DNA of 22,219 bases, taken from IMG/VR virus record IMGVR_UViG_2029527006_000005; one strand, 5' to 3'. Numbering within the stretch: the stretch's first letter is position 1; every line of letters starts with the position of its first letter. Under the pieces are notes generated by a model. The model was given only the letters and a program-made list of their open reading frames with translations. It searched no databases and was not told the origin of the DNA. Made by a program: the position numbers and the translations under genes. Of the stretch, positions 1 to 22,219 are shown piece by piece. The stretch is from a virus. Lineage: Duplodnaviria > Heunggongvirae > Uroviricota > Caudoviricetes.

Positions 1-1
1 C

Positions 2-657
2 GATGTTCATCATATCTTCAGACCAATGATACTCATTTTCACAGATAGTACGACCAACTTCCTCAACGTATTGAGTACTGAAATGATTAGCTAAGTTAAT
101 CGTCATGGTACTCTTACCAGTACTCTCAACACCAATAATACAAACCTTCTTAACGAAGTGTTGCTTCGCTGCTGGTGCTAAGTAATCCCAATTTCCATAA
201 ACATCTTTGCGTACTTTGGTAGCACTAATGTTTACAGTACTACGATCAGGATCAATTAATACATGTTCAGCTTCGGGCCAGTGAGTACTGAAGTAATCAT
301 TGTACTCAGTTTCGGATGAGAACACTTTATGAATATATGTTTCACCGAATGAGTTCCACACCGCATCGCGTACTAGCTGTGTGAACTCCGTAGAACCGTC
401 TGGGTAGCTCCAGATTTGACTCTCGTCCACGAATGATACATGTACGTTCTTCATGTGTTTAAACGTGTCCTTGAGCCATAGAGGCGATTACGGAGGGTTA
501 ACCGACCGTACAAGTCATCGCTTAGGTTATTCTGGAACTTCTGATCCCAGCAGAGAATAACGTACAATTTATCAACCAAAGCCGCCGCTTTCGTGATGGC
601 TGAGATATGCCCCGTAGTTAACGGGGCGAACTTACCAAAGAATAAACCGTTGTTCAT
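2..657 (-). CDS. nadR: NadR-type NMN adenylyltransferase / ribosylnicotinamide kinase, interrupted by a 1-nt frameshift at ~481; runs off the left edge
   Basis: ORF 451-657 has GKFAPLTTGH (T/HxGH nucleotidyltransferase motif). Shifting frame at 481 gives LWLKDTFKHMKNVHVSFVDE...NISATKVRKD...KKVCIIGVESTGKST (Walker A)...VEEVGR, open to the window edge. This is the typical NadR domain order. Confidence 0.9.
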
Positions 658-1269
658 TTACTTCTCCGCTAGTTTCTGAGCGACATAAGCTAAGATTGCT
701 TTCGCTTCAATCTTTTCTTTGTCAGTACCGTTCAAGATCAACGGACGCATTTCTACTAGTACTTCTTCGAAGTTCAAATGAACACTTAATTCAGATTGAA
801 CTACTTCTTTAGGTGTGAAGATTTCAATGAGATTATCAAGTATATCATAATGATTATCACGAGTGCTGTTATTAATAACTTTCAATTTATTGAACAAACG
901 TGCATCACCACTGAACTTGTACTTTTCTTGTAGTACTTTTAATTGTTCTAGTACACCTGCTTCATCATCACGCCAGTGTAAGATTTCACCACCATCAGAA
1001 TTTTTATCTGCAATAACGAACTTATGTTCCGTGGTTAGTTGAGTAACTAGTTCAGAAAAGATATCAAAGAAATTACCATTCATTAGTACACGCCCGGTAA
1101 TGTCACGGATTGTTGCTGTGTGCAAATGATAGTTGTGTTTCTTACGTAGAATTGAATACAACTTGTAATACAAGCCTACACGATGACCAGTGAAATGAAT
1201 GGTCTTTTGTTCTTCATTCTTTTTGTAAACGGTAAACGTATTAGTTTCATGGAACAATGGAATAGGCAT
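658..1269 (-). CDS. hypothetical protein (203 aa, MPIPLFHETN...)
   Basis: Start moved from 1404 to the ATG at 1269, just after the upstream TAA at 1271-1273, which removes a long overlap; the stop abuts the nadR start. Confidence 0.8.
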   Translation of the reverse strand: MPIPLFHETNTFTVYKKNEEQKTIHFTGHRVGLYYKLYSILRKKHNYHLHTATIRDITGRVLMNGNFFDIFSELVTQLTTEHKFVIADKNSDGGEILHWRDDEAGVLEQLKVLQEKYKFSGDARLFNKLKVINNSTRDNHYDILDNLIEIFTPKEVVQSELSVHLNFEEVLVEMRPLILNGTDKEKIEAKAILAYVAQKLAEK

Positions 1270-1270
1270 A

Positions 1271-1888
1271 TTATACTTTCTCCTGAACGTGATAGATATG
1301 AGCACAGTATACCTTATTGATCTCTGGCTCGTCAAACAAATAATCACACTGTGGGTTCTGAGTGCCGATATACTTACCCCACTTTTCCCAACGCCAACCG
1401 TCATCTTCGGGTTGACCTTGTTTAAGTACTGGCATTAGTGCAATAACGTACTGCTCATCAGGATTGATGATCGCACCTTTCCAGTACTCAAGGGCTTGCT
1501 CTACATTGTCACAAACCATGTAGCAGCCTATAAGGTTTTGGTTAAAGAAGGCTTCACCATCACTGACCGCATCGCCATTACGTGTTACGTTTGGATATGA
1601 ATCAATCAGTTTCACATTGGAACTACTATCAATAGTTCCGTGAAAATTACCACCCAATGTTAACCATACACCTTTCTGTACTTCTTCAATACAATCAACC
1701 GCAAAGGTTCCATCCTCTTCTGCTTCATCAGCAAAAGATTCCCACCATTTATGATTAGTATCTGCGAACGTAGTTACCAGTTGTAATTCAACACCATCCA
1801 CATCGCGAATTTCCAGTACTTCGGTTGTGCCGTGGAAGTCTTTTTGTTTATTGTGTTCTTCAACATCAATTTTCATTGATACTAACAT
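1271..1888 (-). CDS. hypothetical phage protein with Trp-rich GWRWEKWGKYIG motif
   Basis: 205-aa ORF with TAATG stop/start coupling to the upstream gene; function not recognised. Confidence 0.8.
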   Translation of the reverse strand: MLVSMKIDVEEHNKQKDFHGTTEVLEIRDVDGVELQLVTTFADTNHKWWESFADEAEEDGTFAVDCIEEVQKGVWLTLGGNFHGTIDSSSNVKLIDSYPNVTRNGDAVSDGEAFFNQNLIGCYMVCDNVEQALEYWKGAIINPDEQYVIALMPVLKQGQPEDDGWRWEKWGKYIGTQNPQCDYLFDEPEINKVYCAHIYHVQEKV

Positions 1889-2184
1889 TATAAACCCCCT
1901 TGGACAATCCCCAAGCCAGCACAGATACCAATGAAGTACAGATACGCTTTTTGAAGATCTTCAGTTCTGCATTTACCCTCTAAGTTAGAGGTTCTGATCG
2001 TAAATTGCAAGTACTGTGATTCATGACAAAGAAGCTGAATACCTTCATTACGGTACATATCATTGAATGCTTTCAGTACTTGTTGTTCTGCTGCCGCAGA
2101 ACGTTCTTCATCGAACTTCCCATCAGGGAAACGGTACTTTAAGTAATCAATTGTTTGTACTGTCTTGATCATTAGTTCACTCAT
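1888..2184 (-). CDS. hypothetical protein
   Basis: 98-aa ORF overlapping both neighbours by 1-4 nt. Confidence 0.75.
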   Translation of the reverse strand: MSELMIKTVQTIDYLKYRFPDGKFDEERSAAAEQQVLKAFNDMYRNEGIQLLCHESQYLQFTIRTSNLEGKCRTEDLQKAYLYFIGICAGLGIVQGGL

Positions 2185-2807
2185 TGGATGTTCACCTTAT
2201 TAGATAACATGTAATCCATCACCATTAGAATCTTTTTGGATTCTTCTGGGTTCGTGTCGATTAGTGCAAGAGCTTTCTTCAACTCAGCAGGAGCATAATA
2301 CTCCATTGTCCAGTTCATGTCAACTTCTTCTTTCAGTACAGGATTGATCACATAATCCTGTACAATCTTCTGTGCTTCGTCACACGTATTTTTCCAAACA
2401 GTGAAGTACGTTTTTAAGTTCTGTGGTAGTACTGGAGATTGAAAAACTTCATAAATTTGTTGACGACGACCAACAATGTTAACTTTAACATCCTTACCGT
2501 GATGCAATTTATCAACATTTTCAATAATAATATCATATGGGTATTTCATGAGGCATTGACCATTGAATTCTTCAGTAATCATTATATCAAAACCGGAAAT
2601 GGCAGTACCAATCTGAATGATAGATACAATATCGGTAGCAAGTATTGCATCTTTGTATGTAAGTACTGGCTCATCGATATTATATTTGCGTTTTGCGGCT
2701 TCTTCAATATAAGACAAAAAGATTTCAAACATTTCACGAAAGTCTTGATTGTTTTCACTGGAGAGTTTTTTTCCGTTCATTTTCATTGAAATTCTGAAGT
2801 GATTCAT
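2181..2807 (-). CDS. hypothetical protein (208 aa, MNHFRISMK...)
   Basis: ATG at 2807 follows a purine-rich RBS (AAGGGG) next to the upstream stop; this avoids the 98-nt overlap of the longer ORF. Confidence 0.75.
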   Translation of the reverse strand: MNHFRISMKMNGKKLSSENNQDFREMFEIFLSYIEEAAKRKYNIDEPVLTYKDAILATDIVSIIQIGTAISGFDIMITEEFNGQCLMKYPYDIIIENVDKLHHGKDVKVNIVGRRQQIYEVFQSPVLPQNLKTYFTVWKNTCDEAQKIVQDYVINPVLKEEVDMNWTMEYYAPAELKKALALIDTNPEESKKILMVMDYMLSNKVNIQ

Positions 2808-2820
2808 TTTTTCATTCCCC

Positions 2821-3246
2821 TTAGATAAACATTTCTGAACAGCGAGAATTACGGTCATACACTTCCTGATCTGTCTCGTCAAAGAAAACACCAGATAAGC
2901 ATTCCGAAATAAATTCACGTGCTTCTACTTTAGTCGCGAAGATGCGGTTCAGGTTGTACTTACCGTGTGTAGTATTGATACCACAGTCATGAATACTACA
3001 ACCACTACGCCATGACTGACCATTCTGACTGATGCGAATCACATCAAAGAACAGTGAATCAGTACGGGAATTTGTTGAATAGTGCCAGTTCTTTGGGAAT
3101 GAAGTAACGATCATCTTTTGGATATTTGCATCCAGATCAATATTGTCTTTATTACCTTTAGAAACCGATTTAACAATACTTGAACCGTATACGTGATAAA
3201 CGATTTTACCCGGAGCAATACCTTTGGTAGTGTTGATAGCAGCCAT
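2821..3246 (-). CDS. hypothetical protein, first gene of an early operon
   Basis: 141-aa ORF with AGAGGA RBS, downstream of the promoter at 3293-3321. Confidence 0.8.
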   Translation of the reverse strand: MAAINTTKGIAPGKIVYHVYGSSIVKSVSKGNKDNIDLDANIQKMIVTSFPKNWHYSTNSRTDSLFFDVIRISQNGQSWRSGCSIHDCGINTTHGKYNLNRIFATKVEAREFISECLSGVFFDETDQEVYDRNSRCSEMFI

Positions 3247-3292
3247 GTTTGATTCCTCTTAATGTGTTAGTGTATGTCGTTTCGATATAGAT

Positions 3293-3328
3293 ATAATAAC
3301 AAAAGGGCTGACTCTCGTCAACCCTTTT
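3293..3328 (-). promoter_or_regulatory. sigma70 promoter overlapping an intrinsic-terminator hairpin
   Basis: TTGACG-17-TATTAT; the -35 is the 5' arm of the hairpin AAAAGGGTTGAC-GAGA-GTCAGCCCTTTT. Confidence 0.8.
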
Positions 3329-3337
3329 TTTAATTTA

Positions 3338-3655
3338 TTACGCTCTTTTGCACATAACAGTTGCAGCCAGTACATCATTCTGTTTAGTCATACTTCCAAC
3401 ATAATCACCACTGTCCAGCTTTGCCAGTTGGTTGATGTGTACACCTACCATTGCACCACCATGATCAACAATTTCATCTAAACGCTTAGATTTGAATACT
3501 TCATCATTCTTCAGTACTGTATAGTCATAACTTACGGTCATTACTTGACAGTTGTAGTCCACATCATTGTATTGGTCATATGCGTAATTTACAACTAACA
3601 GACCCAAAACTGCCACGAGCAACCAGATTCCGGTACTAAGAGAATAATATTTCAT
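3338..3655 (-). CDS. membrane-anchored protein, N-terminal TM and two Cys; probable paralog of 4582-4911
   Basis: Hydrophobic N-terminus, YNC motif, C-terminal AATVMCK. Confidence 0.75.
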   Translation of the reverse strand: MKYYSLSTGIWLLVAVLGLLVVNYAYDQYNDVDYNCQVMTVSYDYTVLKNDEVFKSKRLDEIVDHGGAMVGVHINQLAKLDSGDYVGSMTKQNDVLAATVMCKRA

Positions 3656-3664
3656 TACTGTTCC

Positions 3665-3958
3665 TTATAGTTCTTCAAAGAAAGCCCACTCTGAGTTTTC
3701 CATACGAATAACACGACCTTTAGCGTTAACCATTATAATGGTTTCTGCACTCCAGTCAAGCCTGAATTTCGTATCAGCGTCTTGCATTTGCTTTCTGACG
3801 TACACAGCCTTAAGATCAGCACTGAATAGATTATTCAAGTACTTACGTAGTTTAGTATCACTATAGTACTCAGTACCATCAAACTTGAACTTGTGAACTT
3901 GGGTGTAGTCACCCTCAAGTTTGTCTACAAGTTCCTGTATTACTTTTAAGCGTTTCAT
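3665..3958 (-). CDS. hypothetical protein
   Basis: 97-aa ORF, AGGTGA RBS, operon packing. Confidence 0.75.
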   Translation of the reverse strand: MKRLKVIQELVDKLEGDYTQVHKFKFDGTEYYSDTKLRKYLNNLFSADLKAVYVRKQMQDADTKFRLDWSAETIIMVNAKGRVIRMENSEWAFFEEL

Positions 3959-3966
3959 TCGATCAC

Positions 3967-4179
3967 CTATTCAATAAAGTCAAAGATTTCAACCACAATA
4001 AGATTAAACTTATCATAGTATGTGGACTTGTCAATGTAATAGTTCAGTACTTTCTCGTGTGCATCATCTGAATCATCAGCACTGACTACGTGAGAGAAGT
4101 TACACTCACAGTTGGTGTAACCAGTTTCAGTGAGAGTTTGAACTTGAACTTTACCTACAGCAGTGAAGTACTTTTTCAT
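3967..4179 (-). CDS. hypothetical protein
   Basis: 70-aa ORF with TAATG coupling. Confidence 0.7.
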   Translation of the reverse strand: MKKYFTAVGKVQVQTLTETGYTNCECNFSHVVSADDSDDAHEKVLNYYIDKSTYYDKFNLIVVEIFDFIE

Positions 4180-4511
4180 TATTCAGCCTCAAATGTTTCT
4201 TCAAATGGTTTACTACGCCCTGAAATTTCCATAGGGTCTGGACTATTAGCACGATCAATTACAGCGAGTGCTGCATTCTCAATGTCATTAACATTGAAGT
4301 ACTCAGTTGCGTACATAGCAAAGGAACCTTCACCTTCGCTTTCGTAGTATGAAACCTCAACCACTGGTTGTTCTTTATAACCAACAAAGTGAGAAGTATC
4401 ACGTTTGATGACCATACCGAATTCCTCACCTAATGGAACTATTACACGAGCAACAGTGTTGTTAGTGATGAGTTCAATGATTTCATACAGATCAGTTGTT
4501 TGTGCGTTCAT
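4179..4511 (-). CDS. acidic hypothetical protein
   Basis: 110-aa ORF, GAGGA RBS, first gene after the promoter at 4543-4572. Confidence 0.75.
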   Translation of the reverse strand: MNAQTTDLYEIIELITNNTVARVIVPLGEEFGMVIKRDTSHFVGYKEQPVVEVSYYESEGEGSFAMYATEYFNVNDIENAALAVIDRANSPDPMEISGRSKPFEETFEAE

Positions 4512-4542
4512 TTAATTAATCCTCTTTGTTTGCGATGAAGTA

Positions 4543-4578
4543 ATTATAGCAAAAAGGGCTGACCGAAGTCAACCCTTT
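4543..4578 (-). promoter_or_regulatory. sigma70 promoter overlapping a terminator hairpin; near-copy of 3293-3328
   Basis: TTGACT-18-TATAAT; hairpin AAAGGGTTGAC-TTCG-GTCAGCCCTTT with UUCG loop and U-tract. Confidence 0.8.
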
Positions 4579-4581
4579 ATT

Positions 4582-4911
4582 TTAAATCTTCTTACACACC
4601 ACAGCAGCGGTTTTCACATCATTAACTGGTATTGCGTTTGTTGCATACTCACCATTGAATTCAACGAAATGATACACGCGAATTCCTAAGAAAGTACTGC
4701 TAGTTAGTTTCAACTTCTGTAGTTCTGATTCGAACACAACCTTTGAACCAGCAAGAGGCTTGTCATCTTGTGTTGCACCGACCATATAGCAATTGTACTG
4801 CTGGTCAACCACTTTGTTAATCACAACATCAATTGCTGGTTTAGCTAAGAATGCCAACCAAAACCCAACCGCTGTTAGTACTAATACTACACAGAAATCT
4901 TTGAAGCTCAT
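4582..4911 (-). CDS. membrane-anchored protein, N-terminal TM and two Cys; probable paralog of 3338-3655
   Basis: Hydrophobic N-terminus, YNC motif, C-terminal TAAVVCK. Confidence 0.75.
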   Translation of the reverse strand: MSFKDFCVVLVLTAVGFWLAFLAKPAIDVVINKVVDQQYNCYMVGATQDDKPLAGSKVVFESELQKLKLTSSTFLGIRVYHFVEFNGEYATNAIPVNDVKTAAVVCKKI

Positions 4912-5876
4912 TGAATACCCCGTTCGTTCATATGTTTACGTATACGTGATACTACATCATTATAGCAACGATGTAAAGAGGTACGTGAATTATATTTACG
5001 TCCCTTTGGATCGGTATAAGTAAACCCTTCTGCGGCTAGAGTCCAGAATGACTTCTCATCGTCCTTATTCAAGCCGTGAACCGCTTCTACCAACGCCCGG
5101 TCATCAGGGGTTAGGTCATGGAAAATAACCTCTAGTAGCTCGTTCATGGTGCTTTCATCAGTAACTAGACCCGGATCAAGGTGGAAGTCTGAACTCTCAC
5201 CCTTGATTACGTCTTGGAGCATTACGGAACCATCTTCGTTCACAGGTGTATCAAGACTGATTGCATTGTTTGTATACTTCATAACACGATTCACTGATAC
5301 AATATCAATACCAGTACCTTCAGCAATTTGATCATTGGTTGGGTTGCGACCATTAGTACTAATGTAACGCTCAATGAAGTTCTGAATCGTTACGTTGTTC
5401 ACGGATTGGTACTTAGGTAGTGCAACCATACGTGCTTCTTCGTTGCCGTAGTTGTACATGGTCTGACGAATAGCTGTCGTTGCATAAGTACTGAAGGATG
5501 CCTTTTGTGTAGTGTCAAAGCGACGGATAGCATGGATCAATCCTTCGAAACCGTATTGTACTTTATCTTGGAATTGAATGTTACACGTGCACTTACGTGC
5601 TACTGCGTAAACTAAACCACTGTTACAACGTACAATCAAATCCATGTTCTTAGCTACATCAATACCTGCATTGATGCGGTCAATTAGGATCTCATTGGTC
5701 AACCCTTCTGGTAGACGTTCTTTAGTATTGTACGCTTCAGATGTAACAATACTTGCAATCTCTTCTTCAACTTCGTCATCACTGTTATGCAAGATGGCAT
5801 TAACTGTTTTGTTCTCGTTTTGGAAACACTCGTCTAGTACTTCATCGTGGATTGATTCTAGATTTAGTTTTTTCAC
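4908..5876 (-). CDS. sigma70-family RNA polymerase sigma factor (RpoD/RpoS-like regions 2-3, divergent region 4)
   Basis: Region 2: NSGLVYAVARK...DKVQYGFEGLIHAIRRFD...FSTYATTAIRQ. Region 3: GRNPTNDQIAE...ISLDTPV. GTG start at 5876 after an AGGAG RBS. Confidence 0.9.
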   Translation of the reverse strand: MKKLNLESIHDEVLDECFQNENKTVNAILHNSDDEVEEEIASIVTSEAYNTKERLPEGLTNEILIDRINAGIDVAKNMDLIVRCNSGLVYAVARKCTCNIQFQDKVQYGFEGLIHAIRRFDTTQKASFSTYATTAIRQTMYNYGNEEARMVALPKYQSVNNVTIQNFIERYISTNGRNPTNDQIAEGTGIDIVSVNRVMKYTNNAISLDTPVNEDGSVMLQDVIKGESSDFHLDPGLVTDESTMNELLEVIFHDLTPDDRALVEAVHGLNKDDEKSFWTLAAEGFTYTDPKGRKYNSRTSLHRCYNDVVSRIRKHMNERGIQ

Positions 5877-5894
5877 GCATACTCCTGAATTGAT

Positions 5895-5922
5895 AAAAAA
5901 TGCCAGTCTTCGTAACTGGCAT
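5895..5922 (-). terminator. intrinsic terminator upstream of the sigma gene
   Basis: ATGCCAGT-TACGAAG-ACTGGCAT followed by a T-run on the minus strand. Confidence 0.75.
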
Positions 5923-5924
5923 CT

Positions 5925-5953
5925 ATAATACATAATATTTTTCTTTATAGCAA
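5925..5953 (-). promoter_or_regulatory. putative sigma70 promoter for the phage sigma gene
   Basis: TTGCTA-17-TATTAT; the predicted +1 falls inside the 5' arm of the terminator. Confidence 0.55.
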
Positions 5954-5954
5954 A

Positions 5955-6458
5955 TCAAATGTTATAAATTCTAACTTGATTGCTGGTAAAACGATCACTG
6001 TAGTGAACCGTCTTAAATGCTGCAATTGCTTCTTCCATCGTGGGTTTGAAGTCATAAACTTCTAACGCTTTTTTCAAAGCGTCTGCACCACTACCAGTAC
6101 AATACCATGCATCAGATTTAAGGGCAAAGAATTTCTTATGCACCTTACCTTTCAGTATATAGATATGTAATAGCCAGTTTTTGTCCACAAGAAAACAACT
6201 ACTAGTACGTTTGTATTTTTTGTGCGAAGGAACAATCGGTGTTCCATGTGCTAAGTACTGAAGGATTTTAGTACTCTCACTGCATGAACCACTTTCAACA
6301 AAGACACGATCATGTACATGAATAGCTTTAACACCATTGTCATTGTACTCATCGTATGAATTCCACGGCAAACCGAATAGAGTTTCGTTTATTGTGGAAG
6401 TAGTGCGGGTGTCGGTAAGAACGACACCCAATTTATGATTGACGTAGATAGTCGTCAT
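5955..6458 (-). CDS. Ntn-hydrolase, HslV/proteasome beta-subunit-like peptidase
   Basis: N-terminal MTTI...LTDTR, later GVKAI, YCTGSGAD and C-terminal DRFTS match the spacing of T1-family catalytic and structural motifs. Confidence 0.7.
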   Translation of the reverse strand: MTTIYVNHKLGVVLTDTRTTSTINETLFGLPWNSYDEYNDNGVKAIHVHDRVFVESGSCSESTKILQYLAHGTPIVPSHKKYKRTSSCFLVDKNWLLHIYILKGKVHKKFFALKSDAWYCTGSGADALKKALEVYDFKPTMEEAIAAFKTVHYSDRFTSNQVRIYNI

Positions 6459-6459
6459 A

Positions 6460-7412: not shown

Positions 7413-7420
7413 TTTTTGGT

Positions 7421-9833: not shown

Positions 9834-10033
9834 GATAGCTCCCGAAGGTGAATAATGATTGTGGCTGTGGTTGCAATATCACCGAAGCGATATGCGTGTT
9901 CAATTGAATTGACTACGTACTTAGTTGGTGTACCAGTCATACTGCTTATACTAACTCCGTGACCAATAATAGGTAGTACTTCTACATCGATCTCTTTCTG
10001 ACAATACCCATCAAAATGAAGTTCTACTTTCAT
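9830..10033 (-). CDS. small hypothetical protein
   Basis: 67-aa ORF with ATGA overlaps on both sides. Confidence 0.7.
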   Translation of the reverse strand: MKVELHFDGYCQKEIDVEVLPIIGHGVSISSMTGTPTKYVVNSIEHAYRFGDIATTATIIIHLRELS

Positions 10034-10602
10034 AGTGCTAGTTCCTGTAGTGGTTTAATAATATTAAGTACTGGATAGTTCTCAATCTGAGGACGACCAA
10101 CAGCACCAGTAATTACGGTTTCAAGTGCACGGATATCTTTAACGAAATTGTAACCTTCGAAAGAGATTTCCTGACGGCGTTCATTGTACAACGCCCACAG
10201 TACAATGTCAGCTTTTTTCTCAATCTTTTTCAATTGACGAGTACTGACACAGGGGCCGAAGGTTAACCATGAACCGTACTTAATACCCTTAACTTCAATG
10301 CGTAGACCGTTGACGTACAGATCACATTCAGCTTCCCGGTTTTCGAACTGGAAAGCAGGATCAACATCAAGGGGTTTACCAAGAAGTTCTTCGATTTCAT
10401 TAAAGAGAATCCACGAGGCATGTTCTGCTACCATCCCAACGAAGTGTGCGTGGGGGTGGTTGAAGCCATAAGGAGACTTCGCAGCAGAGGCAATACGTTC
10501 ATATTTCTCTGACTTTGCGATGGCTTTAGCCATGAAGGAATCGGCTTCGTCACTGAATAGCTTGACGGTCATCTTATCATTCTTAATAGTTAAACGGCTC
10601 AT
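10030..10602 (-). CDS. PD-(D/E)XK restriction-endonuclease-fold nuclease
   Basis: GMVAE...ECDLYVNGLRIEVKG fits the E...D...ExK catalytic pattern, followed by ADIVLWALY beta strands. Confidence 0.65.
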   Translation of the reverse strand: MSRLTIKNDKMTVKLFSDEADSFMAKAIAKSEKYERIASAAKSPYGFNHPHAHFVGMVAEHASWILFNEIEELLGKPLDVDPAFQFENREAECDLYVNGLRIEVKGIKYGSWLTFGPCVSTRQLKKIEKKADIVLWALYNERRQEISFEGYNFVKDIRALETVITGAVGRPQIENYPVLNIIKPLQELAL

Positions 10603-14764: not shown

Positions 14765-16016
14765 TTACTTCGTTTTAAGTGCAGAAATAAATGCCGTAAA
14801 ATCTTCACGGTGTTCGAGATATAGGGATTGTAAATCGCAACCCGCTACTGTGTCAAACTCTTTCTGTGGTACTTCTTTTTCTGGGTACATTAGTTTAATG
14901 TACTCTTTGACTTCTGCATCTTCAAGATATGGGATCTCGAAGGTATAATCAACACGCCCTTTACGGGTCATCGCTGCGTCAATTTTCTCTAAATGGTTAG
15001 TGGTTAGGAACACCACTGTATCATCTAATGATACTACACCGTCAAGTACGTTTAGTACTTTAGATAGTGATAGTACTTCCATTAGTTCTGCCATCCCATT
15101 AGTGTTGTCGTTTTCATCCTCTCTGGAATGAAGTGCACGACATGAGTCAAAATCTTCGATTAGTACAATACTGTTCTTAGGTACAGAAGCCATTGTCTTT
15201 TTCGAAAGTCATGTTGCTCATTGTGGTAATATCAATAATGCAAATGTTTTTCTTGAAGTGAGAAGCAAGTGCTTTAATTGTACTACTTTTACCTGTACCC
15301 GGTAGACCATGAAGGATATAGGTTTGCTTGTATGATAGGCCACGTTTTACGTACCAATCGCGATTGGCGTAGAAGTACTCTAAGTTGCTTACCAATTCGT
15401 CTTTGATATCTTTGCGTAGAATAACGGATTCTAGTGGACGTTTGTTTACACGAGAAATTTCATTCCATTCTTCTTTGTAGTTAAAGATACTTAGATCAGT
15501 TTCTTTTGGTTTAACAGCAAAGTCTTCTACTAACGCAATTAGTGGTTTTTGATTGCGGCCTAGTGTTTTGATAATAATATTTTGTTTCTCTTTCTCGGAA
15601 CCAGAACTTTGTAGAGTTCCTTTCGAGAACCAGAATAGACGTTTCTTGTAGAAGAAGAAGTGTGTTCCGTAACCTGCACCAATTACATAGGTCTTAGCTA
15701 GTGCTTTACTATCATCGTCATCATCATCCCATCTGCGATGGAATTTACCATCTAGTGAAAGATAGCGTGACCATTTCGCATATGGACTTTTAAGATACCA
15801 ATCCATGAATGCTAAAAAGTGTGCTTCATTACCACTCCAACCAGCGTTGTTCAATTCAAGAGTGGTAATACTTTGACTGTATAGGAAGTTCCATACAGTA
15901 GGAATAAAACGTACTAGATACGTTACTACAGCCGCCCCATATAATGTATAAAGACCAACCATCCAAGGATAGTCTTTCATCATTTGACTAAAAAATGACA
16001 TGTACTCCGTGATCAT
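14765..16016 (-). CDS. BCS1-like AAA ATPase (TM + BCS1_N + AAA), split by a 1-nt frameshift at ~15198-15202
   Basis: GYGTHFFFYK, KTLGRN, KRPLESVIL, WYVKRG, GLPGTGKSS (Walker A) in 15177-16016. IVLIEDFD (Walker B), LNVLDG, FLTTNH, RKGRVD (Arg finger) in 14765-15193. Removing one A from GAAAAAG joins them as ...TFEKTMASVPKNS. Confidence 0.88.
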
Positions 16017-16255: not shown

Positions 16256-16263
16256 TATGCACC

Positions 16264-16680
16264 TCATTTTATGCCATGTTTGATTTTCTTCTCCACGTAT
16301 TTTTGTGAAATACTCTTAAGTACTGCGAGATGCTCGTACTTAAAATTAGTTGTCATTGGATATACTGTTGGTAAACAATCAAAGTATGATCGCTCTATGT
16401 CGAATTCAATCACGAAGTCTTCATTCCATGTATTAGTTCTACGTGTTAAATCCCATGTATTCAAGATAAATTCAGTTTCACTATACAAATCTATTAGCAT
16501 AGTATATCGGTCTTGTGGTGGGAACCATTCAATTCGCATGGATCGTGAATCCATCCCATAGCCTATATTAAAAGATACTTCCATTTGAGTTTTTTCTATT
16601 TTAACTCTATGGTGGTATATGGGTTCAAAGAATGCATTAAAATCTTTATCTACGCTCTTAAGTGCTTTTAGAAGTGACAT
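16264..16680 (-). CDS. hypothetical protein, possible divergent EEEYFQ-family member
   Basis: IERSYFDCLPTVYP followed by an amphipathic helix. Confidence 0.75.
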   Translation of the reverse strand: MSLLKALKSVDKDFNAFFEPIYHHRVKIEKTQMEVSFNIGYGMDSRSMRIEWFPPQDRYTMLIDLYSETEFILNTWDLTRRTNTWNEDFVIEFDIERSYFDCLPTVYPMTTNFKYEHLAVLKSISQKYVEKKIKHGIK

Positions 16681-16696
16681 AGGTTTCCTTAATATT

Positions 16697-16712
16697 GGGG
16701 AGTTTCCTCCCC
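16697..16712 (-). other. GNRA-tetraloop hairpin without U-tract (mRNA processing or stability element?)
   Basis: GGGGAG-GAAA-CTCCCC between a stop codon and the next RBS. Confidence 0.55.
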
Positions 16713-16717
16713 TTAAA

Positions 16718-17647
16718 TTACATCATCATGCGTATTTCACGCATAATAGTAGATAAACTCAAAACAAAATCTTTAAACTTCGGTACGTTTTCATACGTAA
16801 TAGAAACACGTTGCATTGTTAAAGCACGAATCACTAAAATAGATGCACCGTGATTATTAATACGTAGTAGATTATCAATAATGATCTTATGCTTTTCTAT
16901 TTCTGTTTCAAATCCAACAGGAATACGAGTTGCACTTAGACATGCGGCGTCTAAAACAGTAAAGTCATTTAGATCAGTACTGGCTAAGTCATCCCAAGAA
17001 TAACGTTGTAATCCATCTGGTGGAACAAATTGTGTATTGAAATATGGTTTAATATCATCGAAGATGCTTTCAACTAAATCACAGAAATTTTCACTGTATC
17101 TGTCGCTTATACTAAACTCATGATCAGAACTGTTAAAAGGTACATGTAAGTCACCAATCACGTACTTGTTAAGACGTGATGGAACTGCATACTCATTAAA
17201 TGCAGAATGAATTTCTGCTATAGATAGAGTAATACCAGCAGCAGTGATAGTATGGTATGGCTCATACACCATCTGGGTATAGTTATGCTCACCAACCATG
17301 ATTTGGACAAACTTTTCAAACAGCGGATCAGATTCCAGCATGTAATCAGAATCGTCATTATTACCATTACATTTCAGTACAGAAATAAGGAATTTTCTTT
17401 CGCTTACCTGACCATGTGTTATGTGCTGACGAAAATCCAAATCTGGTCTTCCATAAAGATCAACTGAGAATGGATTATTAGAACGCCCACCTATCATGCG
17501 ATATCCAGTTTCATCCATAAGTTTCTTGTACTCCGAAACTACACGTTGTGAATCAGACTGTGGATGCTTATGGAAGTACTCACCAGTACCGCTATAGTTT
17601 GCTTTATAATCTAGAAGAAACTTGTAGAAATCTTCACGGCTAATCAT
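16718..17647 (-). CDS. hypothetical protein (309 aa)
   Basis: Long ORF in operon context; no recognised motif. Confidence 0.85.
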   Translation of the reverse strand: MISREDFYKFLLDYKANYSGTGEYFHKHPQSDSQRVVSEYKKLMDETGYRMIGGRSNNPFSVDLYGRPDLDFRQHITHGQVSERKFLISVLKCNGNNDDSDYMLESDPLFEKFVQIMVGEHNYTQMVYEPYHTITAAGITLSIAEIHSAFNEYAVPSRLNKYVIGDLHVPFNSSDHEFSISDRYSENFCDLVESIFDDIKPYFNTQFVPPDGLQRYSWDDLASTDLNDFTVLDAACLSATRIPVGFETEIEKHKIIIDNLLRINNHGASILVIRALTMQRVSITYENVPKFKDFVLSLSTIMREIRMMM

Positions 17648-17649
17648 GT

Positions 17650-17979
17650 TTAAACCTCAGCACGTTCGTTGACTAGAATTCCTTCCTCAGAATATTCTAA
17701 ATCAAAACCATTACCGAACATAATGCACATCATCCAGTACACTACATTTTCCTGTTCATAGTCTTCTTGCATAGCGTATAGCTTGTTGAGCTTCACCATA
17801 TCATGAAGAGTTTCACGCACTTCAACTTCACGATTACCATGCATACGGCCTACAATCTTTGTAAGCATTGCAATGCCGTGTTCTAAATTATGTTCTGCTA
17901 CATCATCACCAAAGTCACGCTTGACTAGTGAAACAATTAGGCGTTGTGCTAGTTCATCTGGCTCAATATGTTTTGACAT
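17650..17979 (-). CDS. hypothetical protein
   Basis: 109-aa ORF with TAATG coupling. Confidence 0.75.
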   Translation of the reverse strand: MSKHIEPDELAQRLIVSLVKRDFGDDVAEHNLEHGIAMLTKIVGRMHGNREVEVRETLHDMVKLNKLYAMQEDYEQENVVYWMMCIMFGNGFDLEYSEEGILVNERAEV

Positions 17980-18200
17980 TACTTATCCTCAGTTACGATG
18001 CATGGGATTGCAGGAGTAAACCACTTATCTAGACCATTACTCAACGCAATATGTGTACCCTCTTTGTTAACCCAGACCTGTTTCACTTCAACCGGGTCAA
18101 ACACTTCAGTACCCCACGGTGTATCACATTTTACTGTAAAGCCAGCGAACGATGCAGTACTGAAAGCTAGCAAAGCTGCACCTAAAATGATTTTTTTCAT
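17979..18200 (-). CDS. small secreted/periplasmic protein (Sec signal peptide, two Cys)
   Basis: MKKIILGAALLAFSTASFA|G with AxA cleavage site; AAGGAG RBS; own promoter. Confidence 0.8.
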   Translation of the reverse strand: MKKIILGAALLAFSTASFAGFTVKCDTPWGTEVFDPVEVKQVWVNKEGTHIALSNGLDKWFTPAIPCIVTEDK

Positions 18201-18227
18201 GCTGTTCTCCTTCATTAAGATACACCC

Positions 18228-18256
18228 ATGATATCGCAAATGCCCTAGATTGTCAA
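18228..18256 (-). promoter_or_regulatory. sigma70 promoter
   Basis: TTGACA-17-TATCAT overlapping the end of the upstream gene. Confidence 0.75.
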
Positions 18257-18766
18257 GCAATCATCGTCAGTTTTTAACGTCTTTGCAAAACGAATTATCT
18301 TTTTGAATAGATCAAGTTCGAACGGAAATACACGGTGCATTGATTGCAATTGAAATAGATATCCTTCATCTAGTTCATCAGGGTTTAAATCTTTAATGAT
18401 AATACGTTCAATAAGATCACCGCAAATTTCATCAACCAATTCAATATGAGTATTGAATATATCAAAACCACGACACATCTTCTCAGGAACAATATCGTCG
18501 GTAAATTCAATTGTTACATTAGTTGCATCTGTGATACGTTTAGTACCATCAGAGTTCTCATAGAAGTCAATACTAAAGTACTGGTTAGCAACTGCTGTCC
18601 AACTAGACGATTCTTGTTCGGTTTTGATAAAATCATTATGTCTACAACCTTCACGGTGCATATATTCAGCGGTGTCAATTGCATCTTCAAGATAGCCGAA
18701 ATAAAGAGATTTATTCCGAGCTTCGATCAATTGAGAAGCAAATGTTCTAGGACCAGTTACTATCAT
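18245..18766 (-). CDS. EEEYFQ-family-like hypothetical protein
   Basis: LDEGYLFQLQSMH; AGGAG RBS. Confidence 0.8.
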   Translation of the reverse strand: MIVTGPRTFASQLIEARNKSLYFGYLEDAIDTAEYMHREGCRHNDFIKTEQESSSWTAVANQYFSIDFYENSDGTKRITDATNVTIEFTDDIVPEKMCRGFDIFNTHIELVDEICGDLIERIIIKDLNPDELDEGYLFQLQSMHRVFPFELDLFKKIIRFAKTLKTDDDCLTI

Positions 18767-19187
18767 TTAATTTTCTCCTATTAATACGAACTTCTAATGA
18801 GTACAAGAGAATTTGTTTAAGTACGTCAGGATTCTCAACCAAGAAGTCGAAATCTTGAATAGTACTTTGTTGGAATATTTCTTCTTCTGATAAGTCCACA
18901 AATGGTGTAGTATCGATTTGCATTGTTTCTGTTACATTAAGAGATTTATCCTCAACGTAATTAAAATTATCATAGCTAATGGTAATTCTATCAGGGAAGA
19001 TATCAATTACACCACCATACAAACCTTCGGAATAAAACGTCATATTAGTACTTTGTTCACGAGTGGTTTGTTCACCACTAGAAGTCCAGAAATTAATACG
19101 CGTCATTTCATCTTGATTAATTTCAAAAGCAGGACTATCAATATATTCAAATAGTTTTCGGAAGTGGTCTAGATCATGAAAAATCAT
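18747..19187 (-). CDS. EEEYFQ-family hypothetical protein
   Basis: LSEEEIFQQSTIQDF; GAGGA RBS. Confidence 0.8.
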   Translation of the reverse strand: MIFHDLDHFRKLFEYIDSPAFEINQDEMTRINFWTSSGEQTTREQSTNMTFYSEGLYGGVIDIFPDRITISYDNFNYVEDKSLNVTETMQIDTTPFVDLSEEEIFQQSTIQDFDFLVENPDVLKQILLYSLEVRINRRKLNDSNWS

Positions 19188-19200
19188 AAAATTTCCTCAA

Positions 19201-19226
19201 AAGAAAAGGAAGCTAATCGCTTCCTT
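19201..19226 (-). terminator. intrinsic terminator after tRNA-Leu
   Basis: AAGGAAGC-GATTA-GCTTCCTT-TTCTT. Confidence 0.8.
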
Positions 19227-19230
19227 GTTG

Positions 19231-19316
19231 TGGTCGGGGTAGTGGGATTCGAACCCACATCCATTTAAGGGAGGCATTTTAAGTGCCTTGCGTATTTCCA
19301 GTTTCGCCATACCCCG
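19231..19316 (-). tRNA. tRNA-Leu (anticodon UAA), CCA encoded
   Basis: Acceptor stem CGGGGTA/TACCCCG, anticodon arm AGGCA-CTTAAAA-TGCCT, long variable region, T arm GTGGG-TTCGAAT-CCCAC, ACCA end. Confidence 0.95.
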
Positions 19317-19319
19317 TTA

Positions 19320-19567
19320 GCTGGAATCCATTTTTTTGTCATATAAGCCGATGAGTTTAATTGCTGTTGGATTCCAAATTGTGTTGTTGAGGTGGTGTTT
19401 TAATCCACGCTGACAGGTGACCTTATCGTTATTACCTGCGGCTCTCCCTTAAGCTACTCAACGGAAATTTATCAGAACGGTTCTTCAAGCCTCTACTACA
19501 TGTGCCTATTGCCGTCGCTCAACACACCCTTCGCTTTCTTCGGTTGCGATAACCTTTCCCGTCTGAT
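19320..19567 (-). ncRNA. candidate structured ncRNA / tRNA-precursor leader with three domains, including a degenerate tRNA-like cloverleaf (19384-19463)
   Basis: No listed ORF; predicted +1 (19567) coincides with the first stem ATCAGACGG/CCGTTCTGAT; cloverleaf-order stems; perfect 9-bp stem TGGAATCCA/TGGATTCCA. Confidence 0.6.
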
Positions 19568-19571
19568 AATT

Positions 19572-19609
19572 ATATTATATCACATTTTCAATGATTTGTC
19601 CCAAGAATT
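19572..19609 (-). promoter_or_regulatory. extended -10 promoter for the ncRNA-tRNA unit; near-copy of 12862-12899
   Basis: GGGACA-17-TATAAT with TGn. Confidence 0.75.
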
Positions 19610-19611
19610 TT

Positions 19612-20043
19612 CTATTTTGTCACAGAAAATTGAGGTTGACGACGAATGATTGAATCCCGTAACCATAGAATAGCAAACAACTGTTCGTATGTCAAGCCAT
19701 GAAAATCGGTTACAGTACTCAACTGGAAGAACTCACCATCATCCATACTGGTAGTATAAGATTCCGGTAAATCCAGTTCAATGCGGTTGAAGTTCTTATT
19801 TGTGTATTCAGTTAGAGTGAACTTGTTAGTACTGACAGAACCCTCTAATCCGAACTCCAAACCATCTTCAGTACAGAACAAATCAAAGAAGTATGCATCA
19901 CCCTGATTGCTGTACGTAAGTAAATGGTTGTTGTTAACATCATAACATGAACGTGGAATTTCAAGTAATGAAATATTATCATGACCTTCCAGACGCCCAA
20001 GGATGTGTGTAATTATTTGAGGCGTTAGGTATTTGATTTTCAT
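19612..20043 (-). CDS. EEEYFQ-family hypothetical protein
   Basis: MDDGEFFQLSTVTDF. Confidence 0.8.
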   Translation of the reverse strand: MKIKYLTPQIITHILGRLEGHDNISLLEIPRSCYDVNNNHLLTYSNQGDAYFFDLFCTEDGLEFGLEGSVSTNKFTLTEYTNKNFNRIELDLPESYTTSMDDGEFFQLSTVTDFHGLTYEQLFAILWLRDSIIRRQPQFSVTK

Positions 20044-20519
20044 TTAACGTTCTCCCAATCTGACACTACTGTTTCATAGAAGGACTGAATAGCAGTCATT
20101 GTATCTTTAATTAGTACTTCTAATTCCCACGGAATGGGAGCACCTTTCAAACAATCCTTTTGGAAATGTTCTTCTTCGGTTTCGTTGAAGTAGCCAATTC
20201 TACAATAGTCTTTTATGTTCTTGGTTTCGTCATCTTCATCACCATCATCTTCGATGATTGATAAAGAGAAACGATTCTTATTGTACCACCAGCAGCACAT
20301 GTAATCAAATCCGGGAGCGAAGTTTAGTACAAGCATCCTATACGATTCAGTACTGTTATAGTAAGTAGTACCCGGACCAAAGTACATTGCAGGGTATTCT
20401 ACTTTCCGACCATCATCAAACTGTAGCTGTTCGCTAGGGCTTAGACGAATGGGTGTTGATTCATTAGGTAGCACTAGATTACGCAATAACGTAATAAGCT
20501 GTTGTTCGTCAAAAAACAT
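20040..20519 (-). CDS. EEEYFQ-family hypothetical protein
   Basis: ETEEEHFQKDCL; GAGGA RBS. Confidence 0.8.
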   Translation of the reverse strand: MFFDEQQLITLLRNLVLPNESTPIRLSPSEQLQFDDGRKVEYPAMYFGPGTTYYNSTESYRMLVLNFAPGFDYMCCWWYNKNRFSLSIIEDDGDEDDETKNIKDYCRIGYFNETEEEHFQKDCLKGAPIPWELEVLIKDTMTAIQSFYETVVSDWENVK

Positions 20520-20538
20520 ATACTGTCCTCAATTAAAA

Positions 20539-20576
20539 CCTGTACTGATTATACACCAGTACAGGAGGGGTGTCAA
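20539..20576 (-). promoter_or_regulatory. consensus sigma70 promoter with the -10 in a hairpin loop
   Basis: TTGACA-17-TATAAT; CCTGTACTG-GTGTATAAT-CAGTACAGG-TTTT. Confidence 0.85.
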
Positions 20577-20579
20577 GAA

Positions 20580-21374
20580 TTATTCACTGACATTTATGCT
20601 GTGCATAGGCAACGGGCTTCGCGTGTCCAACACATGAGGTGTTGTATCTTTCATGGTTAAATGAAGTATTTCTGTTTTCTTGAATTTGTTCATCCGAATT
20701 AGATCATCATGTAGATCATTATAATCATCACGTAGATGAGTGTCCCAACCTTTAGGTACAGTTAGCCACGGTTCAAACGAAACAATTCTTTCGTTGTAGA
20801 AATAGTGTGTTGCATCAATATCAAAACCAACTGGAACCACTAGGTCGTAAACATTAACAATGCGTTCTTCTGTATGAATACCATAAGGTTTAGTGGTAGC
20901 ACCTAAGCTAGTGGTAGTACTTCGATGAATGAAGTGACAATCACGGAATAGCTCATTTAGATTTAGTGTTTCGTTGTTTTCGAATTCATAGATACGAGAG
21001 CACTTGAAAGTACCTGCACCTAGTTCACTTTGTTCATAAACGTTAATCATGTAGGTATATGAACAGTACTCAACGTTGTTTGCATGACCACGAAGTTCAG
21101 TCATTTTACCCATAAGTACTGCTTGATTATAAATGTCATCATCAGTGAATTCTACCATATCTGAATTGGCTACGTCAATAGCGTCGAGTTGTGCTAATAG
21201 TGCTTTATCTTCATCAGATAGATGGTCTTGTTCAAAGTACGCATCTAGGTCATTAAAGATTGCACCACCTTCAGTACTTAGACTTTCGGCATCTTTGTAC
21301 ACTTCAGCCATACGCTCATAATAATCGTCTTGAAATTTTTGTTCATCTGTCCTAGATTTGTTATTGTCGTCCAT
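20580..21374 (-). CDS. hypothetical protein with very acidic N-terminus (264 aa)
   Basis: Asp/Glu-rich first ~85 aa; TDDDIYNQAVL weakly resembles the family motif. Confidence 0.85.
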   Translation of the reverse strand: MDDNNKSRTDEQKFQDDYYERMAEVYKDAESLSTEGGAIFNDLDAYFEQDHLSDEDKALLAQLDAIDVANSDMVEFTDDDIYNQAVLMGKMTELRGHANNVEYCSYTYMINVYEQSELGAGTFKCSRIYEFENNETLNLNELFRDCHFIHRSTTTSLGATTKPYGIHTEERIVNVYDLVVPVGFDIDATHYFYNERIVSFEPWLTVPKGWDTHLRDDYNDLHDDLIRMNKFKKTEILHLTMKDTTPHVLDTRSPLPMHSINVSE

Positions 21375-21383
21375 GTTGTTTCC

Positions 21384-21608
21384 TTAGAATGAATCAGGCT
21401 TGGCTATGCTGCGTACAGCACCCATGAAGCCCTTTTGTAGATCTGTCTTGGCGATGTTCAACCAACGCTTGTCAACGTCTGGTGTATTGGCTAGCTTCGC
21501 CATAAGCTCACCAACTTGAGCACCAAGCTCTTTAACTTCGTTCATAAGTTCAATCTCTTCTGTACTTAGTTCACGATAGCCTTTAATTTTACGATGTTGA
21601 TTATCCAA
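21384..21608 (-). CDS. acb2: anti-CBASS protein Acb2 (cyclic oligonucleotide sponge), TTG start
   Basis: [29 protein letters not shown]...[27 protein letters not shown] closely matches my recollection of Pseudomonas phage Acb2 (MDNQHKKIKGYRDLSQEEI...RWLAIGKTDIQTGMM...AQPDSF). Confidence 0.9.
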
Positions 21609-22041
21609 TTTGTTTAGTCCTCTCTGATATGAGTTCGTTTAATTGTTCGATGAAGCCGAAAACAATCATGTTCTCTTCCATCGTTAGTTTTAAATCAGTA
21701 ACAGTACTATTTTGAAAGTACTCTTCTTCTGTTGAGTATATTCGTGTGGTATCATGAACCCACTTTCCCAATTGACACATTTCAATTTCAAATATAAATT
21801 GAGTTTCATCATCCGGTACTGGAGTAATGAATACATCTAGTTCGAAATTGTCATTGCAAATGATACTAATGAATATAATACCATTGCTGTGATTCTTCAA
21901 ACAGTACTGGTCATCTTTCTGAATGTTGCAGTACTGTTCACCTAGTACAGCACAGTCATTCTCATCAAAGCCATTATAAGTCATGATATCAAATGGTTTG
22001 AAAAGATCTACTTTCTCTCGGAAGATAGTGTATAAACTCAT
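21601..22041 (-). CDS. EEEYFQ-family hypothetical protein
   Basis: [15 protein letters not shown]. Confidence 0.8.
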
Positions 22042-22219
22042 CGTATGTTTACCTTAGTTTCATAGAAACGTGAACGGATAGCATCAAAGAAGTCTTTCAT
22101 TTCTTTTTGATCTTCATAAGAGAATGGAAGGTCTTGAACCGTAGTAGCTTGGAAGTACTCTCCACTGTCACCGTAGAGTTTAAATTCATACTCTAAAATA
22201 CTATAGTCATTCTCTCCAT
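22038..22219 (-). CDS. EEEYFQ-family hypothetical protein, 5'-truncated by the window edge
   Basis: Manual translation: ...[45 protein letters not shown], with an ATGA overlap into the next gene. Confidence 0.75.
   Translation of the reverse strand, partial: GENDYSILEYEFKLYGDSGEYFQATTVQDLPFSYEDQKEMKDFFDAIRSRFYETKVNIR

Follow-up and report, generated by a model that had tools for sequence, protein, structure and literature searches.

The palindrome AGTACT is strongly over-represented in RaK2-like jumbo phages and may be a protein-read DNA word

We analysed the palindrome AGTACT in a 22,219 bp fragment of a tailed phage genome (IMG/VR record IMGVR_UViG_2029527006_000005), here called the window. 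AGTACT occurs 72 times, is 9.8-fold over-represented and ranks top among all 4,096 hexamers of the window. The window is a piece of a RaK2-like ("group 2.2") jumbo myophage, and all 11 RaK2-like genomes that we counted share the excess. Our preferred, though tentative, interpretation is that AGTACT is a selectively maintained DNA word of these phages, read symmetrically by a DNA-binding factor. New here are codon-context statistics in a new lineage, polarised gains and losses, the independence of the half-sites and a nuclease lead. Also new are negative results for methylation, regular spacing, ParB, a ScaI-type enzyme and a satellite origin.

Results

AGTACT is written into genes in all three codon phases

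In 100 dinucleotide-preserving shuffles of the window (G+C content 38.1%), AGTACT was expected 7.22 ± 2.65 times, with a maximum of 14. The 72 sites, each 6 bp long, start at positions 74, 119, 236, 284, 758, 932, 1425, 1483, 1815, 2010, 2075, 2428, 2662, 3513, 3838, 3865, 4046, 4167, 4298, 4693, 4877, 5355, 5487, 5836, 6254, 6270, 6729, 6964, 7298, 7649, 7716, 8253, 8739, 8973, 9085, 9784, 9975, 10067, 10240, 10931, 11134, 11308, 11530, 11588, 12619, 13090, 13943, 14561, 14590, 15054, 15072, 15374, 16319, 16976, 17575, 18156, 18577, 18861, 19047, 19714, 19828, 20113, 20349, 20916, 21065, 21115, 21273, 21703, 21717, 21903, 21930 and 22154.

Codon phases were assigned using 41 open reading frames (ORFs), chosen by hand from a mechanical list with an 80-amino-acid cut-off and not taken from a gene caller. 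These contain 68 of the 72 sites. Phase 0 accounts for 26, all encoding Ser-Thr. Phase 1 accounts for 17, encoding x-Tyr-x (Glu-Tyr-Phe in four cases), and phase 2 for 25, encoding x-Val-Leu. The other four were placed by eye; at least one is in a short minus-strand ORF of fewer than 80 amino acids and one is in a frame that leaves the window end. Probably, all 72 sites are intragenic.

Several null models were compared with the 68 in-gene sites. Shuffling synonymous codons, with each protein and its per-gene codon usage fixed, gave 17.2 ± 3.7 sites and at most 27. Shuffling codon order gave 8.6, half the count of the synonymous shuffle. A dicodon Markov model gave 11.3 sites in phase 1, compared with 17 observed, and 16.4 in phase 2, compared with 25; the dicodon classes contributing to AGTACT are themselves ~4-fold enriched. 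A maximal-order Markov model of the bare sequence gave 64.9, compared with all 72. AGTAC, GTACT and GTAC already show the excess, and this high expectation reflects only the same excess carried by the sub-words AGTAC and GTACT.

Codon choice depends on context. Ser-Thr pairs are spelled AGT-ACT in 26 of 42 cases, compared with 5.7 expected. Between NAG and TNN, tyrosine is encoded by TAC and TAT in a ratio of 17:1; elsewhere the ratio is 148:156. Similarly, GTA encodes valine in 25 of 26 instances between NNA and CTN, and in 37% elsewhere. The synonymous codon that completes AGTACT is thus used ~95% of the time where flanking codons permit, compared with ~40–50% elsewhere. Hence, the cause lies at the level of DNA. 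Protein sequences are not spared. The 42 Ser-Thr pairs exceed the 27 expected and, together with a synonymous-shuffle expectation twice that of codon order, this surplus indicates that protein sequences are bent towards AGTACT.

Two sites 14 bp apart, at 21703–21722 on the minus strand (GAAGAAG[AGTACT]TTCAAAAT[AGTACT]GTT), encode part of a small acidic protein that has paralogues, the peptide EEEYFQNST. The Glu-Tyr-Phe site is in phase 1 and the Ser-Thr site in phase 0. The family pattern, EEEYFQxST, matched just two window ORFs and supplies ~3 of the 72 sites.

The original prediction, made from the sequence letters and their ORF list, had counted about 70 sites against about 8 expected at ~37% G+C. 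It had placed them in all three codon phases and argued for a cause acting on DNA rather than protein. Each of these claims is borne out by the counts above. Disappearance of the enrichment under codon- and dicodon-preserving nulls had been named beforehand as the refutation; the enrichment survives both.

Half-sites and flanks behave independently and symmetrically

The core GTAC occurs 216 times in the window, compared with 77 expected, and the excess of AGTACT is carried by GTAC and both pentamers. In whole genomes, neighbours that differ at an outer position (NGTACT and AGTACN) are enriched 1.4–2.9-fold, while inner-position neighbours occur at ~1 times expectation. For the transition neighbours AGTATT and AATACT, observed/expected ratios are 0.95–1.26 in the relatives 7t3, 121Q and BF. 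Hence, the depletion of transition neighbours that would be the signature of repair-driven (very short patch, VSP, or Vsr-type) origin was not found in these three genomes. A repair-driven origin, as originally proposed, is not supported.

Flanking bases were also tabulated. G at position −1 and C at position +1 are disfavoured in five of five whole genomes and in the window, where G precedes the word in 7 of 72 cases and C follows it in 13 of 72. The favoured flank differs by lineage, being C...G in 121Q and RaK2 and A...T in BF, XaC1 and 7t3. Left and right flanks are independent, with observed/expected ratios of 0.8–1.2 for most palindromic 8-mers and extremes of 0.59–2.64 on small counts. 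The longer words containing AGTACT include CAGTACTG and AAGTACTT. Rarest of four palindromic 8-mers, in six of six sequences tabulated, is GAGTACTC. The GTG...CAC flanks of a SlmA-type site are disfavoured around AGTACT; GAGTACTC occurs 3–23 times per genome, compared with 67–247 for CAGTACTG. Independence and symmetry of the flanks form the pattern that a two-fold symmetric reader with additive half-sites would leave.

Sites are scattered and not evenly placed. The mean spacing in the window is 311 bp, with a coefficient of variation of 0.78, within ~2 standard deviations of Poisson. Across whole relatives, gaps have coefficients of variation of 0.97–1.18 (Poisson, 1.00) and 5-kb bins are over-dispersed (variance/mean 2.6–3.8). 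Neither regular spacing nor a maximum-gap rule was found in the window or in whole relatives. The originally suggested unit of "about every 300 bp" is just an average over sites scattered in a Poisson-like way. Such spacing does not point to functions that require even coverage.

AGTACT marks RaK2-like phages and an unrelated phage family

We counted AGTACT alongside the reversed word TCATGA as control. For RaK2-like genomes, AGTACT/TCATGA counts were 853/145 in 7t3, 941/150 in fENko-Kae01, 1072/152 in BF, 1011/169 in GAP32, 903/134 in 121Q, 1105/186 in XbC2, 1356/130 in XaC1, 937/142 in RaK2, 1235/187 in CBB, 1313/200 in Hallingskeid and 1114/174 in Kaldavass. Hence, each of the 11 holds 853–1,356 copies. 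Outside the clade, counts were 15/40 in PA5oct, 400/1147 in E. coli K-12, 1/13 in phi92 and 29/51 in T4. PA5oct represents a sister lineage that infects Pseudomonas; its 15 sites compare with 97 expected. The E. coli K-12 genome (NC_000913.3, 4.64 Mb) under-represents AGTACT relative to the control word, and the window is therefore ~37 times denser in sites than that host genome.

In 7t3, 121Q and BF, AGTACT is the commonest hexamer. In the same genomes at least 22 six-base palindromes each are absent, as are 23 from XaC1 and 16 from RaK2. PA5oct shows no such purge. Other words are missing too. GCGC does not occur in the window (~29 expected) or in 7t3, 121Q, BF, XaC1 and RaK2 (215–346 expected each). 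Those five genomes also lack AGGCCT, CGTACG, CTCGAG, CTGCAG, GAGCTC, GCATGC, TCCGGA and the non-palindromic GAGCCC, and share between them a single CAGCTG, in RaK2. CCWGG is absent from the window.

The two phages recorded as isolated on Xanthomonas (XbC2 and XaC1) carry the AGTACT trait. The recombination word Chi (GCTGGTGG) occurs at ~10–20 times expectation in five RaK2-like genomes (7t3, 121Q, BF, XaC1 and RaK2), with one strand holding more copies than the other, and is not enriched in PA5oct. In 7t3 there are 24 copies on one strand and 7 on the other, compared with ~2.3 expected; the window has one. As XaC1, despite its Xanthomonas label, carries enterobacterial Chi at ~10 times expectation, which suggests an enterobacterial history, we do not regard the Xanthomonas phages as demonstrating host independence of the trait.

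Scanning IMG/VR identified an unrelated phage family of ~32 kb (40–41% G+C) that is saturated with AGTACT and CAGTACTG, at one per 230 bp. One member (provirus L234+L235, 32,211 bp) has 140 AGTACT, 59 CAGTACTG and no GCGC; further loci are L195, L197, L199, L206, L214 and L222. We considered whether such small elements might be satellites that mimic a jumbo helper. This was rejected for the 32-kb family, whose members carry terminase, portal, capsid and tail genes of their own. Compared with our phage collection the family gave zero matches. Against E. coli genomes only its first gene, for a pyridoxal-phosphatase-like HAD hydrolase, matched (two genomes, 79% identity). No integrase or replication genes were recognised in the family.

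None of the 80 loci listed in a separate scan of bacterial genomes for three close copies of CAGTACTG was an enteric element. The scan did return short repeats with three CAGTACTG in ~52 bp, at no fewer than 120 loci compared with ~2 expected. These are found in Porphyromonas pasteri (L080, L082, L087, L098, L108, L111, L113 and L135), other Bacteroidales, Rhodococcus, Planctomycetes and others, and look like a dispersed repeat family unrelated to phages.

AGTACT is conserved above background and still being gained

We compared the window with 7t3 over 12 kb of alignment (74% identity). Fifteen of 33 AGTACT sites are kept, compared with 21% of all hexamers. Between 7t3 and fENko-Kae01, which are 98.8% identical, 4.0% of 816 sites are lost or differ; the figure is 6.2–6.4% for background or same-composition hexamers.

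With changes polarised by fENko-Kae01 as the outgroup, the tips leading to 7t3 and Munch together show 15 gains and 26 losses. Per one-off neighbour, the gain rate is 0.0054 for AGTACT and 0.0007–0.0025 for five control words. This is 3–7 times the rate of four unrelated control words and ~2 times that of TGTACA, which has the same GTAC core. The polarised gains indicate that copies of AGTACT continue to arise, so that the word is no relic in decay. All six positions contribute gains, through transitions as well as transversions. These gains, like the undepleted transition neighbours, speak against a single mutational or VSP-like route. An unpolarised per-neighbour gain rate was dropped as evidence because it merely restates the equilibrium enrichment; only polarised counts are used here.

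AGTACT is built into early promoters of a relative

Every whole genome has a 20-kb zone with 2–3 times the usual AGTACT density. The zone in Serratia phage BF is packed with early promoters of the form aaaAGTACTTGCAA-N9-AGTACT-(g/t)-TATAAT. Two copies of AGTACT, ~20 bp apart, adjoin the −35 and the −10 box, respectively. A protein bound to these sites would overlap RNA polymerase contacts. AGTACT is thus enriched in non-coding promoter DNA of relatives as well as in genes. Promoters do not explain the sites in the window, which has no pairs of the early-promoter type and in which the sites are probably all intragenic. In phage CBB, a 1.2-kb stretch with no annotated genes (329406–330630; L273) lies upstream of the HTH_37 regulator and sigma genes and has four AGTACT.

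A clade-specific nuclease is a candidate enzyme

We sought genes with the same distribution as the word. The five AGTACT-rich genera have 161 genes in common, of which 85 have no match in PA5oct. Only one of these 85 is in the window: the ORF at 10030–10602 on the minus strand. This gene, the best conserved in the window, encodes 190 amino acids and has AGTACT at 10067 and 10240. Each AGTACT-rich whole genome searched, five in all, has a single copy; none was detected in PA5oct or the 32-kb family. Homologues are 54–88% identical and the named ones are from RaK2-like phages.

The ORF product has the PD-(D/E)xK (restriction-endonuclease-fold) signature and, as modelled, the fold of this nuclease superfamily. 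Residues E60, D94 and E103-x-K105 are invariant in 24 homologues. The AlphaFold2 (AF2) model has a predicted local distance difference test (pLDDT) score of 89.5. Its nearest folds are the Hjc resolvase (Z score 8.0, root-mean-square deviation 2.7, 103 residues aligned) and the homing endonuclease I-Ssp6803I (Z score 8.0, root-mean-square deviation 2.8, 110 aligned), followed by the type II restriction enzymes DpnI, NhoI and SwaI with Z scores of 6–7. Top matches are mostly PD-(D/E)xK nucleases, and a Z score of ~8 is also typical of background matches. No Pfam family matched, and a sequence profile of the nuclease found nothing among Protein Data Bank (PDB) sequences.

A profile search of metagenomes gave 188 distant relatives. 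One of these (L333) sits between a helix-turn-helix (HTH) gene and an N6_N4 methyltransferase gene, in a row resembling a restriction-modification locus. A diverged homologue (E value 1e-59) is on a contig of 43% G+C (L325) with 40 AGTACT compared with 3.3 expected (12-fold) and no GCGC. Contigs with more distant homologues are not AGTACT-rich, having 5 sites compared with 2.9 expected, 1 with 3.4 and 15 with 6.9. Co-occurrence of nuclease and word outside the clade is therefore not convincing. One contig (L327, 9,894 bp; homologue with E value 4e-41) shows a 2.7-fold excess of GTAC, spread over all flanks; AGTACT is not enriched in it and GCGC is present. The distribution of the nuclease gene is inseparable from shared ancestry. 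From sequence comparison and circumstantially, the nuclease is a candidate for an enzyme acting on AGTACT.

Identity and gene content of the window

About 90% of the window is ORFs, almost all on the minus strand. At the DNA level its only matches are the Salmonella and Klebsiella phages 7t3, SE_PL, Munch, PHA46 and fENko-Kae01, with 78% identity over 18–22% of its length. Judged by its best match (the 7t3 group, 78% identity over 22% of the window), the parent phage is new at the DNA level. Gene order in the window and 7t3 is identical.

Pfam searches of 30 window ORFs matched only a sigma factor and a BCS1-like AAA protein. The sigma-70-family factor (4908–5933, minus strand, 341 amino acids) has Sigma70_r2 and Sigma70_r3 domains, consistent with the annotation of relatives. 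The homologous stretch of CBB is suspected by its authors to be an early, host-takeover gene region (PMC5259590). The position of the sigma-factor homologue inside that region suggests that the window is early-region DNA of a RaK2-like phage. The BCS1-like AAA ATPase is one ORF of 411 amino acids in 7t3; the window instead has two overlapping ORFs of 142 and 279 amino acids (14765–15193 and 15177–16016, minus strand), which could reflect a genuine split of the gene, a frameshift or a sequencing error. A tRNA-Leu(TAA) gene lies at 19231–19316. The adjoining 424-bp gap at 19188–19611 lacks long ORFs and contains no AGTACT.

Discussion

We propose that a directional pressure on DNA writes AGTACT into all frames, mostly via synonymous codons and partly at a cost in amino acids, and that this pressure still acts. 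Half-sites and the flank preference (not G before, not C after) behave independently and symmetrically, as expected if the reader were a dimer with two-fold symmetry whose half-site contacts add up. A putative DNA-binding protein, more probably encoded by the phage than by its host, would recognise AGTACT across the whole phage genome, and each added copy would confer a small additive benefit. Because AGTACT is found at constant positions next to the −35 and −10 boxes of BF early promoters, which are of the sigma-70 type, we infer that a DNA-binding protein is the most likely mechanism.

Several findings weigh against a selected, protein-read word. No reader protein was identified. ParB_N (PF02195) had no match in 7t3, 121Q, BF, PA5oct or a 32-kb phage, although control genomes matched. 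A RE_ScaI endonuclease homologue was not detected, in a search that had no positive control. No homologue of the HTH_37 regulator beside the sigma gene of CBB and GAP32 was detected in 7t3, fENko-Kae01, Munch, 121Q, BF or the window. By BLAST, the genes common to the 32-kb family and the jumbo phages are limited to those for a T4-type lysozyme and an HNH homing endonuclease, with no candidate DNA-binding gene. Poisson spacing gives no sign of a need for even coverage, and motif-directed conversion would look alike. Near-identical relatives lose sites just about one third more slowly than background. Strictly clean alignment regions give 6 losses and 2 gains, counts too small to show anything.

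The reader could instead belong to the host. An Enterobacterales protein (RNA polymerase holoenzyme, for instance, or a protein of the nucleoid or of division) would bind AGTACT, and phages would accumulate copies to attract it or soak it up, as with Chi for RecBCD. Consistent with this, the unrelated 32-kb family is equally saturated and has no plausible reader gene in common with the jumbo phages, the AGTACT of BF sits inside promoters with host sigma-70-type −35 and −10 boxes, the same genomes hoard the host word Chi, and PA5oct, a Pseudomonas phage, lacks the trait. However, E. coli under-represents AGTACT, which is therefore not a host "self" word. The SlmA box GTGAGTACTCAC, a host site that contains AGTACT, is of the disfavoured kind, as judged from the scarcity of GAGTACTC relative to CAGTACTG. 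The two Xanthomonas phages are a further, weak objection; enterobacterial Chi, counted in XaC1 only, is present too. We consider a host reader unlikely.

AGTACT could also be made without benefit. A motif-directed mutational or gene-conversion bias, for example palindrome-biased heteroduplex repair during T4-like recombination, would account for Poisson spacing, for the modest extra conservation between 99%-identical genomes and for the lack of an identified AGTACT reader. The clade also has a conserved nuclease with no assigned specificity. Several results speak against such a drive. Gains involve each of the six positions and every kind of change, which does not fit a single lesion or mismatch type, and transition neighbours in whole genomes are undepleted. 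Amino-acid sequences are bent towards AGTACT, positions in the early promoters of BF are exact and convergence on AGTACT is seen in an unrelated phage family. Such a bias would itself require an AGTACT-specific enzyme. This explanation is scarcely more or less doubtful than the last.

A more specific form of the protein-read word seems improbable to us. AGTACT would be a genome-wide mark, arising in RaK2-like phages and independently in the 32-kb family, and read by a dedicated symmetric protein, possibly the PD-(D/E)xK nuclease of the window. The reader would act on phage DNA only, in early-promoter shut-off, in starting recombination-dependent replication, or in sparing or selecting phage DNA during destruction of host DNA. 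If true, this would be a sequence-based, modification-free distinction between viral and host DNA.

Alternatively, the nuclease might be directed at its own genome. It would nick or cut AGTACT in replicating phage DNA, seeding recombination-dependent replication or loading a sliding clamp for late transcription, so that more sites mean more starts. T4-type replication does proceed from recombination intermediates and nicks do enhance T4 late transcription. The catalytic signature is intact in a fold shared with restriction enzymes and resolvases, and the gene is single-copy in all five AGTACT-rich whole genomes searched and was not detected in PA5oct. A diverged homologue on an AGTACT-rich contig and a distant relative in a restriction-modification-like gene row add to the case. 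Conversely, gene presence is inseparable from shared ancestry, contigs with more distant homologues are not AGTACT-rich (one has raised GTAC instead) and the AGTACT-rich 32-kb family has no homologue. The best fold matches are no better than typical background and include structure-specific resolvases. A 2025 nanopore study comparing native with amplified DNA found motif-linked nicks in another phage and reported none for Hallingskeid and Kaldavass, which are jumbo phages (PMC11780129). We regard self-directed cleavage as quite improbable.

The original prediction compared AGTACT with the cyanobacterial palindrome HIP1, which is tied to methyltransferases, and raised site-specific modification as a cause. 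A phage enzyme modifying AGTACT or GTAC, with linked repair or protection, would raise the frequency of the word. Some members do encode methyltransferases: N6_N4 (PF01555) is found in BF and GAP32, C5 (PF00145) in GAP32 and 121Q, and CBB is reported to have adenine and cytosine methylases. No such family is common to all. These two and the D12 class (PF02086) are patchy in the clade, and all three are absent from 7t3 and fENko-Kae01, which nevertheless have 853 and 941 sites. For Hallingskeid and Kaldavass, with 1,313 and 1,114 AGTACT, the nanopore study reports GATC, CCWGG and TGCAT as the only modified motifs (PMC11780129). AGTATT and AATACT are undepleted. Modification of AGTACT is unlikely, and we hold it very improbable as the source of the excess. 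The likeness to HIP1 remains apt as an analogy, whereas its methyltransferase link is unsupported.

Least credible is a by-product of codon, dicodon or protein-motif usage: GTA, TAC, AGT and ACT are common codons, a paralogous family (EEEYFQxST) writes two sites into a conserved peptide and the maximal-order Markov count is close to 72, but the synonymous shuffle (17 expected, not 68) and the jump in codon choice only where AGTACT is completed refute this reading as far as shuffles can, the peptide motif yields few of the sites, and AGTACT is also enriched in non-coding promoter DNA of relatives.

Phages are the textbook case of palindrome avoidance. Here dozens of palindromes have been purged to zero, yet one has become the commonest hexamer, bending codons and proteins. 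This implies a DNA-reading process that has not been described; as originally supposed, we found no paper describing the AGTACT phenomenon in phages. Such a process would lie in a widespread group of giant phages that infect enteric and plant-associated bacteria; some of these phages are under study for phage therapy and biocontrol. A reader of AGTACT, if found, could explain how phages with unmodified DNA treat their own and host DNA differently. In practice, the very dense ScaI and RsaI sites matter for cloning and typing, recoding or synthetic-genome work on RaK2-like phages would need to respect AGTACT, and the word is a cheap metagenome marker for members of the clade.

Known DNA words provide a frame for the selected, protein-read word that we favour. 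ScaI and Eco255I recognise AGTACT itself and RsaI its core, GTAC. Phages normally avoid sites of this kind, as seen in phi92 (1 copy) and PA5oct (15 compared with 97 expected), whereas the window shows no avoidance of this restriction target, AGTACT being its commonest hexamer. The SlmA-binding site of E. coli (GTGAGTACTCAC) has AGTACT as its central six bases; unlike the phage word, it needs flanks that are disfavoured around phage AGTACT. In E. coli, GATC is a short palindrome read genome-wide on both strands by Dam, SeqA and MutH. No Dam/SeqA/MutH-like strand marking was found for AGTACT, which has no reported methylation, no conserved methyltransferase and no spacing more even than Poisson. 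Chi (GCTGGTGG), DNA uptake sequences and the FtsK-orienting polar sequences (KOPS) resemble AGTACT, as interpreted here, in being dispersed in many copies that each contribute little and that selection has enriched for reading by a protein. However, they are asymmetric, strand-oriented and host-rich with known readers, while AGTACT is a palindrome, poor in E. coli and with no known reader. The closest likeness is to HIP1 (GCGATCGC) of cyanobacteria, also a short palindrome in genes, in all frames and in many-fold excess, kept by selection and with its reader not known. By the features that define HIP1, AGTACT shows genome-wide excess and above-background conservation (modest in close relatives) and lacks a cognate methyltransferase. 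AGTACT differs in being 6 bp long, in having no conserved cognate methyltransferase or reported modification (two relatives), in occurring in virulent phages that otherwise purge palindromes and in being built also into the early promoters of BF.

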